Positions 2 through 27,297 of a stretch of DNA of 52,400 bases are shown one piece after another; position 1 is the first letter of the stretch; the number at the start of each line of letters is the position of its first letter. Source of the stretch: Bacteroidales bacterium. Its GTDB lineage: Bacteria > Bacteroidota > Bacteroidia > Bacteroidales > WCHB1-69. The notes below the pieces were generated by a model. The model did no database searches and had not been told where the DNA came from. It worked only from the letters and a program-made list of their open reading frames with translations. The stretch is taken from the NCBI GenBank assembly GCA_038240835.1, contig JBBRGJ010000003.1, positions 1 to 52,400 on the forward strand. Reading direction: 5' to 3'. A program made the translations under genes and the position numbers.

Positions 2-2422
2 GTCATCAACAGCAGATCTTTTGGCGCTGACCGCGAAAATGTTGCTCAAAAATCCATTGCATATATGTTAGGAATGGAAGACCATGGATTGTTATCGTGT
101 GCAAAACACTTTCCTGGTCACGGCGACACCGAATCCGATTCACACCACACACTTCCCATCATCAACCATAACCAAGCCGTTTTAGACTCCATCGATTTAT
201 ACCCATTTAAACGGTTGATAGAAAGTGGAATCAGTTCAGTAATGGTAGCCCATCTCTTTGTTCCCGCGCTCGATTCCACCAACAGCAGAGCATCAAGTCT
301 TTCTCCAAAAATTGTACACGATTTATTGCGTGATAAATTAAAATTTGAAGGATTAATTATCACCGATGCATTGGATATGAAAGGAGCTTCTAACTATTTG
401 AAACCAGGTGAATTGGAACTTGCTGCCTTAATGGCAGACAACGACATTTTACTCCTCCCAATATATCCCGAAATAGCCATCAGAGCGATAAAAAACGCAG
501 TAGACAGTTGCTTAATCCCCGAGGATATGATTACCGAAAAATGTCTAAAAATCCTCAGATACAAGGAAAGATTGCGTATAAATCATTGCTTTGAAATCCC
601 CACCGAAAACTTATACAGCGATTTAAATCCAATATCCACAAAACACCTTGTACGGGAACTTACCGAGTCGTCGATTACCGTGATCAACAACCAAAACAAC
701 ATTCTCCCAATACTTCAAACGAGTTTTGACAATTACGCAACCTTATCCATTGGAGCGAATAATAAAACACTGTTTCAAGAATCGATGTCGATGAATGGAC
801 GGTTTACGCATTTCAACTTCGCTCCTACCTTCAACTACAAACAATCCGATTCGCTTTTAAGAGCAATATCAAATTACAAAACGGTCGTTGTCTCCATTCA
901 CAACACATCGCAACTGCCACAAAGAGGATATGGCGTTACCAGCGAGTCCGTTCAATTCATCGATGCATTGGCGAAGAAAACGAATGTAATATTGACGATT
1001 TTTGGAAATCCATACATTTTAGAAAAATTTCACACCTTAAAAAATTATCAAGCCATTGTAGAAGCATATCAACCCACTCAAATGGCGGAAGAATCTGCGG
1101 CACAAGTCATCATGGGCGCTGTAAAAGCAGACGGGCGACTACCGGTGAACATTGACACCACGCTGATCGTTGGCGAAGGAAGCAATACATTTCCTATCGG
1201 ACGACTTCGAGTGACAGAGCCTTCAAAATTTGAAATATCTGAAACTTACATCCAAAAAATAGATTCAATCGTAAAAAAAGCCATCAAACTTCGTGTATTT
1301 CCTGGATGCCAAATAGCAGTAGCTTATAAAGGAGAGATGATTATCAACAAATCGTATGGAACTCCAACGTATATTGACAAAAAAGGAGTTTCAAATTCCG
1401 ATCTTTACGATATTGCCTCCATCACCAAGGTATTATCGACCACACTTGCAGTGATGAAATTATACGAAAACAAAGACATTGTACTCGAAGAAAAAGCATC
1501 ACACTATCTTCCCTCGTTGAAAAATACCAATAAATCGAACATTACCATTTCGCAATTGCTCACTCATAATTCTGGATTAAAGCCATTTTTGCCATTTTGG
1601 AAAGCGTTTATGAAAAATGGAATTGCAGATACTACTATTTTCAAAAAGAGCGCAACGGCTGATTTTCAATTTCAAGTGGCAGATAGTATGTTTGTCAACA
1701 AATCTATAAAAGACAGTATTTTGTTTAAAATAATAGAGTCGGATGTGGATTCATTAAAATCGTATCAATACAGTGATTTTAATTTCATTCTTTTAAAGGA
1801 AATCGTTGAAACCATCACCCAATGTCCAATCAATAAATTTGTCGATAGCGTTTTTTATGCACCGTTAAATTTATCCTACATTGGATATCAGCCATTGGCA
1901 AGGTTTCCAAAAACTCAAATAATGCCAACCGAACGAGACGAACTATTTCGGAAACAAGTTGTTCGCGGAACCGTGCACGATCAAACGGCGGCGTTGATGG
2001 GTGGCGTTGCTGGTCACGCAGGACTCTTTTCGAATGCTTCTGATGTTGCCATATTAATGCAAATGTTGCTCAATGACGGAATATATGCAGGCACAAGAAT
2101 ATTAAAACCTGCGACCGTTCAGAAGTTTACCAAACATTGGTTTACCAAAGAAATTGCCAACCGAAGAGGCCTTGGTTTTGACAAACCTTCGCGTGAAGGC
2201 GATCCCTCTCCAGTATCACCGTCGGCATCAGAAAAAAGTTATGGACACACCGGTTTTACAGGTACTTTAGTCTGGTCGGATCCTGATTACAACCTAACCT
2301 TTGTTTTTTTATCAAACAGAGTATATCCAGATGCTGAAAACAATCGGTTGGCAAAAATGGGAATTAGAACAGAAATTCAAGAGCTGCTGTATCAAGCAAT
2401 TCAAAAGAGTCTTGTGAAGTAA
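2..2422 (+). CDS. GH3 beta-N-acetylglucosaminidase fused to a C-terminal serine beta-lactamase-like (AmiE-type) domain; 5'-partial
   Basis: Frame is open from base 2 (VINSRSFG...). GH3 NagZ motif KHFPGHGDT..DSH and ITDAL nucleophile; C-terminal SxxK (ASITK), YSD and GHTGFTG motifs. Confidence 0.9.
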   Translation, partial: VINSRSFGADRENVAQKSIAYMLGMEDHGLLSCAKHFPGHGDTESDSHHTLPIINHNQAVLDSIDLYPFKRLIESGISSVMVAHLFVPALDSTNSRASSLSPKIVHDLLRDKLKFEGLIITDALDMKGASNYLKPGELELAALMADNDILLLPIYPEIAIRAIKNAVDSCLIPEDMITEKCLKILRYKERLRINHCFEIPTENLYSDLNPISTKHLVRELTESSITVINNQNNILPILQTSFDNYATLSIGANNKTLFQESMSMNGRFTHFNFAPTFNYKQSDSLLRAISNYKTVVVSIHNTSQLPQRGYGVTSESVQFIDALAKKTNVILTIFGNPYILEKFHTLKNYQAIVEAYQPTQMAEESAAQVIMGAVKADGRLPVNIDTTLIVGEGSNTFPIGRLRVTEPSKFEISETYIQKIDSIVKKAIKLRVFPGCQIAVAYKGEMIINKSYGTPTYIDKKGVSNSDLYDIASITKVLSTTLAVMKLYENKDIVLEEKASHYLPSLKNTNKSNITISQLLTHNSGLKPFLPFWKAFMKNGIADTTIFKKSATADFQFQVADSMFVNKSIKDSILFKIIESDVDSLKSYQYSDFNFILLKEIVETITQCPINKFVDSVFYAPLNLSYIGYQPLARFPKTQIMPTERDELFRKQVVRGTVHDQTAALMGGVAGHAGLFSNASDVAILMQMLLNDGIYAGTRILKPATVQKFTKHWFTKEIANRRGLGFDKPSREGDPSPVSPSASEKSYGHTGFTGTLVWSDPDYNLTFVFLSNRVYPDAENNRLAKMGIRTEIQELLYQAIQKSLVK

Positions 2423-2485: not shown

Positions 2486-3376
2486 ATGAAAAAGTCAATC
2501 ACCCGATTCAATATCGTTGCAGCGTTGCTTGTATGCTCAATGATTGGTTTATTATCCTTAAAAAATACTCATACAACCCAGAGGGATTATGTCTCTATTT
2601 CCAAATATATAGACGAACACAAACTCGAGGTTAAAATCTCTGGAAAAGGTGGCCACTCGGAAAAATGTTTGACTTTTGAGTTAAAAAACAAGACTCCAGA
2701 TTCGCTCTTCATCCGGTTAGAACCTGGTCGTAGAATTGTGTGCGAAGACTCATCACTTCAAGATATTTTAATTGTAAAAGAGAACCTCATGGCCCTTGCT
2801 CCTAATTCTAAGGTAACCGCAGAAGGATATGGATTCTGTTGCAGAGCCACTAAACACAGTCCATCCAAAGATTCCAAATTCAACATTGGATTCATGGACC
2901 CACCAAAATGGGTAGAACTTGCAGAAGTCATCAACCAAAATAATTTTCCAACGCAGCCGATACAAAATGCAATTTGGGTATTGTCCGACAACCATCCAAT
3001 CACATCCATTTATTACGAAAAAATGGAAGAAATCGATCTTTTACTTCAAACCGTAGAGAAGATAAAAGGGATAAAAAGACCTTGGTATTCTATTACTTAC
3101 GCCAAAGACACGTCCATGTTGTTTTCAAATCGTCCCGAAACACTCCACGGAAAAATTAATTATTACACCAACAAAAACACCGTCATCTCGATCAACGTAA
3201 GAAGTGCTAAAGGGCGATTAATGACAACATTGATAAATGAAGAGCTAAAAAACACAGGCAATCATGAGTACAAGCTCAACTTTGATATAACAAACTGGCC
3301 TAAAGGCGATTATGATGTAAACGTATTGGAAGATTACTCGAATCTTAATTTTAAAAAGAGATTTACAATTGAGTAA
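2486..3376 (+). CDS. Secreted hypothetical protein; candidate thioester-domain protein with T9SS CTD/FlgD-Ig-like C-terminus
   Basis: 296-aa ORF with N-terminal hydrophobic signal; motifs GFCCRATKHSP and IQNAIWVLSD; C-terminus ...GRLMTTL...WPKGDYDVNV...KKRFTIE resembles a T9SS sorting domain. Confidence 0.6.
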   Translation: MKKSITRFNIVAALLVCSMIGLLSLKNTHTTQRDYVSISKYIDEHKLEVKISGKGGHSEKCLTFELKNKTPDSLFIRLEPGRRIVCEDSSLQDILIVKENLMALAPNSKVTAEGYGFCCRATKHSPSKDSKFNIGFMDPPKWVELAEVINQNNFPTQPIQNAIWVLSDNHPITSIYYEKMEEIDLLLQTVEKIKGIKRPWYSITYAKDTSMLFSNRPETLHGKINYYTNKNTVISINVRSAKGRLMTTLINEELKNTGNHEYKLNFDITNWPKGDYDVNVLEDYSNLNFKKRFTIE

Positions 3377-4989: not shown

Positions 4990-6198
4990 ATGAGAAAATT
5001 ACTATTTACATTCATCGGCTTCGCTATTTTGACGTCATGTACGCAAAGTAACAGCAAAAAGGAATCCTCTTCGAAAGACTCTGTCGTTACCACAACCGAA
5101 AACGAAGTTACAAAAAAAGACAACTCTAAAACAATAGAAATCAGCTCTTTAAACTTAGACCCAACCAAAGTAAAAGATTTGAATGACATTGCAAAATTTA
5201 GTGCTGGCATGGATGTAAACAGTGACAGCAGATTGTCGAAATACACAAAAACAAAAACGTGGAGATCGTATTCGCAACAAGCAAATGTTACATGGAGTAG
5301 TTTTTTCAGCAAAAACGAAGCAGCTCGCACTTGGGGTGACAATGAATTAGCAGAAGTAAGAACATCGTGCAACACGTTGATTTACCCATTTAGCGGTCCG
5401 GATGCTTTATTCCCAGAAATATTTTTTCCTCAAACCAAAGAGGTGTTCATGATTGGATTAGAGCCAGTAGGTTCAATTCCTTCGTTTAAAAACGTAGAAG
5501 ATAATACTCAATTAGACACTATTTTTGAAAAATACAAAAGAGCCATCAACGAGGTGATAAAATTCAGCTTCTTTATGACTAAAAAGATGAAAATTGAGCT
5601 GACCAACCAAGACATCGACGGCACCACTCCTATCATCATGTTATTCCTCGTTCGCGAAGGTAAAGAGCTTTTAAAAGTAGAACCCATCATCATTGGGAAA
5701 GACGGTGAAGTAGTTGTAAAAAACAATTTTAACGAGATTAAAAGTTCTAAAAACAAAGGAGTTCGGATTTTTTACAACAATCCAGGCAGTAAAGAAGTTC
5801 GTCAAATAACCTATATTTCAACCAATTTAGCCGATGGCACATTGACTGTAAACAGCGAACTTTTAGCATTTTTTGACAATATGAAAGGAAATGTTTGCAG
5901 TTACGTTAAATCTGCCTCATACTTAATGCACAAAGATGCATTCTCAACCATTCGTAACACATTATTGACAAAATCTAAATTTCATTTGCAAGATGATTCC
6001 GGAATTCCATACAAATATTTCGATAAAAAAATATGGGATATCAAACTTCATGGAACCTACGAAAAACCAATAAAACTTTTTGCCAATAGCGCAGAAGCCG
6101 ATTTAGCGAAAGCTTATAAAGATTCAACCATTAAAAAATTGAACTTCAGAATCGGATACGCAGGCAAATCAAACTTATTATTTGCAAAGAAAAAGTAA
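4990..6198 (+). CDS. Lipoprotein of unknown function (YPFSGPD / KSASYLMH / QDDSGIP motifs)
   Basis: Lipobox ILTSC; starts 3 nt after the permease stop; enzyme-like motifs. Confidence 0.75.
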   Translation: MRKLLFTFIGFAILTSCTQSNSKKESSSKDSVVTTTENEVTKKDNSKTIEISSLNLDPTKVKDLNDIAKFSAGMDVNSDSRLSKYTKTKTWRSYSQQANVTWSSFFSKNEAARTWGDNELAEVRTSCNTLIYPFSGPDALFPEIFFPQTKEVFMIGLEPVGSIPSFKNVEDNTQLDTIFEKYKRAINEVIKFSFFMTKKMKIELTNQDIDGTTPIIMLFLVREGKELLKVEPIIIGKDGEVVVKNNFNEIKSSKNKGVRIFYNNPGSKEVRQITYISTNLADGTLTVNSELLAFFDNMKGNVCSYVKSASYLMHKDAFSTIRNTLLTKSKFHLQDDSGIPYKYFDKKIWDIKLHGTYEKPIKLFANSAEADLAKAYKDSTIKKLNFRIGYAGKSNLLFAKKK

Positions 6199-26178: not shown

Positions 26179-27297
26179 TTAATTCTTCAATAGAACAATT
26201 TTGCGAACAATTTTTATGGAATCTGCTTTCAGAACTAATATATAAACTCCTTGAGGCAAATCGTCTGAGGTTAAAACCAATTCGTAATTTCCAGCTTTTT
26301 GGGACTCTTTGCACAATGTTTTTACTTCATTTCCTTTCAAATCCGTCAACACTAAAGAGACACTATCGTATGCTCGAGGGAGCAGGTAGGATATTTTAGT
26401 TTCATTTGCAAATGGATTGGGTGAAATATTACTCAACGAAATTCCTTCAACTGAGGGCAAAGTTGACACAGAAGTGGCGGTCAAATCAGGACTTCCGCCT
26501 TGTTTCCAAGCAGTATACAAAAGTTCGGCTAATGCGTGAGAAGCATTTTTGAGCAACATTACGGTAAAAGTTTTGGTTTGATTCCAAAGTTCAGCTTTGT
26601 AAGCAGTAGAAGTATAACTTGGATTAAGCGCTTTGGCAATATTATCGGCGATTAAAATTGAATCCACATATTTATTATTTTCATAGATATAATTAAAAAT
26701 ATAGGTGGGAACATCGGTAATTTCAGTCGCGGGAGAGCCTGTGTAGCTAATTTGTGAAATATATGCACCGATCATGGTTGATTCGTACCGAGAGTGAATT
26801 CCATTGTTTCCTGTGTCGTAACCATTATAATTTTTTGTGATATGCAAAGGCATGTGACCGTCGCCCACGTAATGTCCCAAGTCGGAAGCAAAAAACAAAG
26901 CCTTGTTTAAGTCACCGCGTTGGAAGCAACTTTTCAAAGAATCAAAAGCAGCAATAGTTGCCCATGGAAGAATTCCCCAACTGTAAATATTACTTTGTCC
27001 ATGGAGAGAAATCACGGTAGCTAAATCCTGAGAGATAAAACCATTTTGAACAAACTCGGGATAATAATCCACATCGATGTAATGCTTTGGGGACTCACTT
27101 TGATCGTCCGACTTACGTGCATCAGCGACAGAAGCACTATCTGCTAATTTCTGAGTCCACGCACTGAATGTGTTCATTTCTGTATTATAGGACAGTGATG
27201 CGCGATAGCTGATGTTGTAATGTCCAACCCAGCCCCAACTTGACACTATAATAATCAATAAAAGAGCTCCTATAAAAAGTCCAGATTTTTTCAACAT
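26179..27297 (-). CDS. S1/P1 nuclease / zinc-dependent phospholipase C family protein with T9SS C-terminal sorting domain
   Basis: Signal peptide then WGWVGH, HYID, HYVGDGHMPLH, IHSRYE zinc ligands; CTD ISPNPFA...LPQGVYIL...RKIVLLK. Confidence 0.85.
   Translation of the reverse strand: MLKKSGLFIGALLLIIIVSSWGWVGHYNISYRASLSYNTEMNTFSAWTQKLADSASVADARKSDDQSESPKHYIDVDYYPEFVQNGFISQDLATVISLHGQSNIYSWGILPWATIAAFDSLKSCFQRGDLNKALFFASDLGHYVGDGHMPLHITKNYNGYDTGNNGIHSRYESTMIGAYISQISYTGSPATEITDVPTYIFNYIYENNKYVDSILIADNIAKALNPSYTSTAYKAELWNQTKTFTVMLLKNASHALAELLYTAWKQGGSPDLTATSVSTLPSVEGISLSNISPNPFANETKISYLLPRAYDSVSLVLTDLKGNEVKTLCKESQKAGNYELVLTSDDLPQGVYILVLKADSIKIVRKIVLLKN

Follow-up and report, generated by a model that had tools for sequence, protein, structure and literature searches.

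Thioester domains (TEDs) are described, in a 2026 preprint among other sources, as adhesin modules of Gram-positive bacteria (Firmicutes and Actinobacteria). In the accounts of Walden et al. (2015; PMC4450167) and Miller et al. (2018; PMC6194298), their internal thioester joins the Cys of a [YFL]CΦζ motif on strand C to the Gln of the weak motif ΦQζΦΦ, which lies on strand Q at the C-terminus, while the Gln and Trp of a TQxxΦW motif on helix α2 only hydrogen-bond the Cys backbone and are inessential for the bond. The ARPP proteins, presented by Iyer et al. (2022; PMC9503650) as unrelated to known domains, were described there in ADP-ribose and conflict-system neighbourhoods, with a proposed role as an enzyme or a covalent sugar cross-linker. 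Here we analyse a gene whose product resembles both, located in positions 1 to 52,400 (forward strand) of contig JBBRGJ010000003.1 from a Bacteroidales bacterium (assembly GCA_038240835.1); this whole stretch of 52,400 nucleotides is referred to as the window. The open reading frame (ORF; Table 1) has an ATG start and encodes 296 residues plus stop. An earlier note on this DNA had read it as a candidate minimal TED on a type IX secretion system (T9SS) cargo, with Cys118 (C118) bonded to Gln160 (Q160), and the two strings on which that reading was based, G-F-C-C-R-A-T-K-H-S-P and I-Q-N-A-I-W-V-L-S-D, are present exactly in the translation.

Results

A large unannotated family with near-invariant Cys and Gln residues

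An exhaustive scan of 1.84 billion representative sequences gave 922 relatives at E <= 0.001, 510 at E <= 1e-10 and 114 at E <= 1e-30, and a profile search gained further relatives beyond it. Close homologues numbered 20 out of 1229 scored candidates (41-97% identity, 196-298 aa). The gene is kept full-length in these 20, in the 922 representative relatives and in 65 genome loci. All source names seen were 'hypothetical protein', from metagenome-assembled genomes (MAGs) of Bacteroidota; the 65 loci and the named sources include MAGs of Bacteroidales, Lentimicrobiaceae, Crocinitomicaceae, Flavobacteriales, Chitinophagaceae and Saprospiraceae, besides others. The family is large, with 922 representative clusters at the first of these thresholds, and unannotated.

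Conservation was counted, unless otherwise given, in an alignment of 305 family members. C118 is kept in 301 of them, Q160 in all 305 and W164 in 304, so that the motifs picked out by the earlier note are near-invariant and hence hallmarks of the family rather than chance. Also strongly kept are G81 (305/305), Q92 (303/305), Asp or Asn at position 93 (304/305), P126 (304/305) and A162 (289/305). Position 117 is Phe, Tyr or Met, position 119 Cys or Val and position 120 Gln, Glu or Arg, and the Thr of TQxxΦW is replaced by Ile, Val or Ala. The conservation line of the family has no conserved Gln at any position beyond residue 166, that is, after the helices, and no His conserved above 60%. Since no His is so conserved, a Cys-His enzyme is unlikely, and a hydrolase or transglutaminase of that kind was rejected.

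The N-terminal domain resembles TEDs

The full-length AlphaFold2 (AF2) model, with a predicted local distance difference test score (pLDDT) of 89.0, has a helix at residues 2-25, eight β-strands between 47 and 137 and then three helices (140-151, 156-166, 180-194); residues 201-205 form a short strand and 217-296 an immunoglobulin (Ig)-like sandwich. VIA-align searches with this model were swamped by matches to residues 199-296, and the N-terminal domain (N-domain) was therefore folded alone; residues 33-200, modelled with 143 sequences, reached a pLDDT of 97.4 and a predicted template modelling score of 0.91. C118 ends strand 109-118 in the AF2 models, and Q160-N-A-I-W164 sits on the second of the three helices. 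The top five of 48,161 chains retrieved by VIA-align with the N-domain model were all TEDs. Foldseek with the same model gave nothing against the PDB at E <= 0.001, and with the full model only β-sandwich matches to the C-terminal domain (template modelling score <= 0.24).

Sequence profiles point the same way. Pfam TED gives weak but colinear matches in 8 of 143 family members (12.3-16 bits, under the 22-bit threshold); in one example, P0090, residues 114-187 pair with profile positions 3-97. The NCBIfam scan of the full-length protein gave nothing, and the model NF012162, 'thioester-forming surface-anchored protein', matches the query N-domain (E 0.034) and 6 of the 143 members, weakly. Aligned by hhalign to 11 canonical TEDs of the same phylum, the family N-domain scored a probability of 75.3% (P 2.5e-5), with C118 on the TED Cys and QNAIW on QMAIW, compared to P 0.13-0.53 for reversed-template and C-terminal domain controls, those with reversed templates lying near 0.5; the sub-profile 107-200, which contains α2, reached 87% (P 3.8e-6). 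The TED likeness proposed earlier therefore stands, and Q160 and W164 correspond to the TED helper motif, because the Gln and Trp of TQxxΦW do no more in TEDs than hydrogen-bond the Cys backbone. The motif alone is not diagnostic, since the family hidden Markov model (HMM), when run against PDB sequences, retrieved only chance 'QxAVW' matches in designed armadillo repeats. A single-sequence search of PDB sequences retrieved no TED.

The earlier note knew of no TEDs in such a setting. We found no description of TEDs in Bacteroidota in the open-access full-text literature, and no open-access text combining T9SS terms with 'thioester domain' was among the top matches listed. At the database level, however, that statement does not hold: matches to Pfam TED (PF08341) exceed the cut-off in 18 of the 301 genomes sampled from the phylum (14/16 in one family), although the genome that carries the window has no Pfam TED match. 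Nor is the spacing between C118 and Q160 unusually short, as had been supposed. It is 42 residues here and 51-54 from Cys to the TQ motif in the 11 canonical phylum TEDs, which makes it ordinary.

The canonical TEDs seen in genomes of the phylum (L002-L013) are class II-like. Each forms the N-terminal part of a very large secreted protein, in open frames that span 490-2263 aa, and their motifs are FYCID, AAVQxAIWHFSD and PQGTRYVHK...KQKLVLATP. Two others, L080 and L081 (f22/g61 genomes), are ~220-aa TEDs of canonical motif order (LYCVD ... LQAAIW ... KQGLVTS; Pfam TED 23.7 and 20 bits) with a PEP-CTERM-like tail, PNPEP followed by a hydrophobic stretch and basic residues. The TED match of L083 (G047) lies in an unrelated ORF and was rejected as spurious.

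A lipoprotein relative and ARPP-1 share the arrangement of the family

P0261 (L082:757-1509 (-)), a lipoprotein of 251 aa whose source genome belongs to the same class, matches the family by hhalign (95.6%, E 1.1e-8) and Pfam TED at 18.3 bits (E 0.0032), and on these profile scores it is a link between the two. It shares with the family the order Q..(26)..GFC..P..QAAIW, with equal spacing from Gln to Cys, and differs in its lipoprotein signal (…ISC), in having no C-terminal sorting domain, in a Cys-to-Gln spacing of 67 and in lying closer to Pfam TED. Because its chain terminates soon past α2, a Q strand at the C-terminus would not fit into it.

A weak lead to an ARPP-1 cluster (score 0.83) came from a language-model search. 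Pfam ARPP-1 (PF20208, threshold 27 bits) has no match to the query at E <= 10 and is outside the 25 families most often matched by the 143 family members; it occurs in 12 of the 301 phylum genomes, with no match in the genome of the window. Compared by hhalign with 12 ARPP-1 proteins, the family N-domain nevertheless scored 94.2% (P 1.1e-7, 147 columns), stronger than with TEDs, and G81, Q92, C118, Q160 and W164 all align with ARPP-1 invariant columns (pattern G....G.KQ[ND]R ...(22-23)... C.E.GRW ...(33-46)... QxxxW). Only ARPP positions 40-195 align, the rest of the query being its C-terminal domain, and the full ARPP architecture with its duplicated β-meander core was not found. ARPP partner genes (ARG, HIRAN, WYL or deacetylase) are likewise absent from the neighbourhood in the window and from the conserved neighbours of 66 loci. 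ARPP-1 and TEDs compared directly are undetectable to each other by hhalign (0.2%), and the family, which matches both, therefore bridges them.

In the sampled ARPP-1 proteins themselves (L084-L095), an invariant Gln precedes the invariant Cys by 22-23 residues in the 10 of 12 where both motif patterns matched, and QxxxW follows the Cys by 33-46 residues in 11 of 12. This layout equals that of the family and raises the question of an ARPP-1 thioester.

Altogether, the profile comparisons show the N-domain to be homologous to both TEDs and ARPP-1, with C118 aligned to the TED thioester Cys, and its assignment as a new, unannotated member of a TED/ARPP-1-like superfamily is well supported. A fold match to ARPP-1 lacking the Gln pairing had been named in the earlier note as evidence against a thioester; the kinship is there, but the Cys and the two Gln are all retained in ARPP-1, and so the objection is only half borne out.

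Q92 is a better candidate partner of C118 than Q160

Coevolution was analysed by mean-field direct coupling analysis (DCA) of the 305 sequences (7626 pairs). I94-G116 ranked 7 (2-7 in 20/20 bootstraps), Q92-C118 ranked 31 and I96-G114 ranked 91, compared to 977 and 7213 for the intervening pairs D93-F117 and L95-Y115; this alternation points to an antiparallel ladder 96-114, 94-116, 92-118, in which Q92, 26 residues N-terminal of C118, would lie opposite it. C119-S167, at rank 10, puts α2 and the Cys loop against each other, an arrangement also found in TEDs. The two sequences without Q92 (P0046 and P0167) are both also without C118 (Fisher test, 1.3e-4); two more lack C118 alone, and Q160 is kept even in these four. 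The family hairpin P-G81-R-R-I-V...Q-D-I-L-I-V resembles the TED P-Q hairpin P-Q-G-T-R-Y-V...K-Q-K-L-V-L-A, and the best local TED match of sub-profiles 45-106 and 74-100 is the P strand 'IPQGTRYV' (P 0.14 and 0.09, neither significant). We consider an internal thioester involving C118 and one or other Gln to be somewhat favoured; that its partner is specifically Q92, and not Q160, is plausible on this evidence, though we stop just short of favouring it outright.

The protein is a probable T9SS cargo

The N-terminus has K2, K3 and R7 followed by a 16-residue hydrophobic run and, read from the sequence, is Sec-signal-like; no clear small-x-small cleavage site is visible in the query. For the C-terminus, 40 of 143 members match Por_Secre_tail weakly, the best at 24.8 bits where the cut-off is 27, and 21 of the 143 have weak TIGR04183 matches (best E 9.3e-6). 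The query ORF is absent from the 110 TIGR04183 matches of its own genome, and hence the TIGR04183 check suggested in the earlier note left the ORF itself unmatched and turned up only weakly matching relatives. By hhalign, the family C-terminus matches 50 C-terminal domains (CTDs) of the same genome with 95.6% probability (E 1.1e-8, 60 columns), and that genome encodes SprA (2615.5 bits) and GldM (308.6 bits). Because of this profile match and the T9SS genes, the protein is a likely T9SS cargo, as the earlier note had it. By these comparisons its C-terminus is a divergent T9SS type A CTD that falls below curated thresholds, and its predicted export is via Sec and probably T9SS.

With 110 TIGR04183 CTD matches in 3.58 Mb, the genome (G000) has a very large T9SS secretome. 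Elsewhere in the window (26179-27297, minus strand) lies an S1/P1 nuclease with a bona fide T9SS CTD (Por_Secre_tail 29.8 bits), likely a secreted nuclease.

Weighing the thioester reading against its rivals

Several observations weigh against a C118-Q92 thioester on a T9SS-exported TED relative. The joint loss of Q92 and C118 amounts to two events only, in related sequences, and the DCA has an effective depth (Meff) of 240. In sequence, the hairpin matches the TED P strand without reaching significance (P 0.09-0.14), and Q92 is off the position of the TED thioester Gln, so that a relocated hairpin must be assumed. The query has no Pfam TED match at E <= 10, no TED is picked up in PDB sequences by the family HMM and global hhalign against TEDs fails (probability 0.03%); the closest profile match is ARPP-1, the function of which, enzyme or sugar cross-linker, is only predicted (PMC9503650). 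The query matches Por_Secre_tail at just 13.7 bits (E 0.08, residues 224-287; cut-off 27). Finally, C118-C119 or C61 disulfides could form after export instead.

Given its closeness to ARPP-1, the domain might instead hold C118 as a free nucleophile, for enzymatic or sugar-substrate cross-linking, with Q92 and Q160 shaping the active site. This would agree with the strength of the ARPP-1 profile match, the alignment of all five residues with ARPP-1 invariants, the language-model lead and the role that Iyer et al. proposed for ARPP, but it would do so with no conserved His or other general base, with Pfam ARPP-1 missing the query, with ARPP genomic partners absent and with TEDs as the structural neighbours; an exposed exported Cys kept in 301 of 305 sequences would also be unusual unless protected, for example in a thioester. 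We regard it as unlikely, though the most serious of the alternatives. Less probable is a non-reactive binding or structural domain, in which the cysteines are disulfide-bonded and the Gln and Trp structural, or in which the N-terminal helix anchors the protein in the inner membrane rather than T9SS exporting it. C61 and C119 are indeed common (217/247 and 187/247), the query CTD is below both curated thresholds and no signal-peptidase site stands out. However, C61 and C119 do not covary (both present in 160 of the 247 sequences, one only in 84), C118 is much more conserved than either, and the CTD profile match speaks for T9SS. An obligate C61-C119 disulfide was rejected, as the two do not co-occur.

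Least probable of these is the pairing of the earlier note, a minimal TED with C118 bonded to Q160 of the QxAIW helix. Q160 is invariant, its TED equivalent adjoins the Cys and is hydrogen-bonded to its backbone (PMC4450167; PMC6194298), and the DCA ranks are mildly raised (C118-Q160 195, C118-W164 71). Yet the equivalent Gln is a dispensable helper in the TEDs those papers describe, Q160 stays in the four sequences that lack C118, of which two have lost Q92, and the spacing argument is void. For the thioester, Q92 is the better candidate.

Discussion

In the mechanism that we propose, the gene product would be a small protein exported by Sec and T9SS, the mature part of which would be a single compact TED/ARPP-1-type domain, a β-barrel packed on a three-helix bundle. 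C118 and Q92 would join autocatalytically as an internal thioester, with Q160 not the partner. Q92 begins the second strand of the β4-β5 hairpin, predicted to lie between the equivalents of TED strands A and B, and this hairpin would stand in for the C-terminal P-Q hairpin of classic TEDs, which the family lacks. After export, and removal of the CTD or anchoring through it, an amine or other nucleophile on a putative target would attack the thioester, and the outcome would be a covalent tether of the cell or protein to that target. That the gene stands alone, with no conserved neighbour, fits such an autocatalytic module.

A broader and distinctly more tentative proposal is that the query family belongs with TEDs and ARPP-1 in a single superfamily of 'harpoon' domains, all of which would form a Cys-Gln thioester autocatalytically. 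Within it the hairpin that bears the Gln would have shifted: C-terminal in classic TEDs, it would stand ahead of the Cys strand in the query family, the P0261 lipoproteins and ARPP-1. If true, covalent capture by a thioester would extend beyond Gram-positive adhesins to proteins that Gram-negative Bacteroidota secrete by T9SS, and ARPP proteins, in conflict systems centred on ADP-ribose, would use a thioester too, with their absolutely conserved Cys and Gln as the pair. The family is the first sequence bridge between TEDs and ARPP-1; in it, TED hallmarks occur together with export by a Gram-negative route and with a candidate Gln in another place. A self-activating covalent tag of 170 aa could also be of use in protein engineering.

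Gene neighbourhood and features

The upstream neighbour (window 2-2422, plus strand; open at the window start) is a fusion in which both GH3 domains (N and C) are joined to a serine hydrolase of β-lactamase fold. Downstream are an amino-acid permease and then an ORF without a Pfam family; an ORF at window 4990-6198 (plus strand) encodes 402 aa, starts in the manner of a lipoprotein (…LTSC) and has no Pfam match at E <= 0.001. Across 66 loci no conserved operon partner was found. The commonest neighbour cluster occurs at 18 of these loci and the next at 8; we read the former as an antisense artefact because the ORF that exemplifies it, L055_3830_4381_-, is encoded on the other strand and overlaps the family gene, which spans 4001-4858 in L055. 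No fused multidomain forms above 740 aa were found, which is weak evidence.

Table 1. Features of the gene and its product, in window coordinates.
Feature	Position	Strand	Basis
Whole gene, stand-alone	2486..3376	+	296 aa; 63 nt to upstream ORF; full-length in relatives
Residues 1-25, Sec-type signal peptide or possible N-terminal anchor	2486..2560	+	Basic n-region, hydrophobic run, model helix 2-25
Residues 34-200, TED/ARPP-1-like domain	2585..3085	+	AF2 model, VIA-align, hhalign
G81, invariant Gly starting the β4-β5 hairpin (P-G-R-R-I-V)	2726..2728	+	305/305; aligns with ARPP-1 invariant Gly
L91-Q92-D93-I94-L95, ΦQζΦΦ-type, opening strand β5 just past the β4-β5 turn	2756..2770	+	Conservation, DCA, co-loss, ARPP-1 alignment
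Q92 codon, proposed thioester Gln	2759-2761	+	Inside the L-Q-D-I-L motif
F117-C118-C119-R120, [YFL]CΦζ-type Cys motif, end of strand β7	2834..2845	+	Aligned to TED thioester Cys and ARPP-1 Cys
C118 codon (TGT), C119 (TGC) directly after	2837-2839	+	
P126, near-invariant Pro closing the post-Cys loop	2861..2863	+	304/305
I159-Q160-N-A-I-W164 on helix α2, TQxxΦW-type helper motif	2960..2977	+	Conservation, hhalign sub-profile, DCA
Q160 codon (CAA)	2963-2965	+	
Residues 217-296, Ig-like β-sandwich, divergent T9SS type A CTD	3134..3373	+	G274, Y276, K-K-R-F-T-I-E tail; models, hhalign

Comparison with known systems

The C-terminus is like T9SS type A CTDs (TIGR04183 / PF18962) in that the last ~80 aa of the protein form an Ig-like sandwich that includes a G-x-Y strand and ends in a basic tail, and differs from them in its divergence, scoring about half the cut-off. 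With ARPP-1 the N-domain shares the order and similar spacing of the invariants, Q..(26)..C..(42)..QxxxW in the query family, and a Cys and Gln in a predicted β-barrel that are absolutely conserved in ARPP-1 and near-invariant in the query family; the sampled ARPP-1 ORFs, in contrast, span 205-637 aa, carry C.E.GRW starting at the Cys and are without a T9SS CTD. Compared to TEDs such as Cpa, SfbI, CpTIE, BaTIE and SaTIE, the query is a domain of ~170 aa that lacks a stalk built of isopeptide or ester domains, has a T9SS CTD instead of LPXTG and scores below the Pfam threshold, and in its family no C-terminal strand bears a conserved Gln, the ΦQζΦΦ motif (L91-L95) instead preceding the Cys on an extra hairpin. 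It nevertheless has in common with them a β-strand that ends in the [YFL]CΦζ motif of the Cys, QxxΦW on α2 and a C-terminal sorting signal for probable surface display, and it may share their β-barrel and three-helix bundle.

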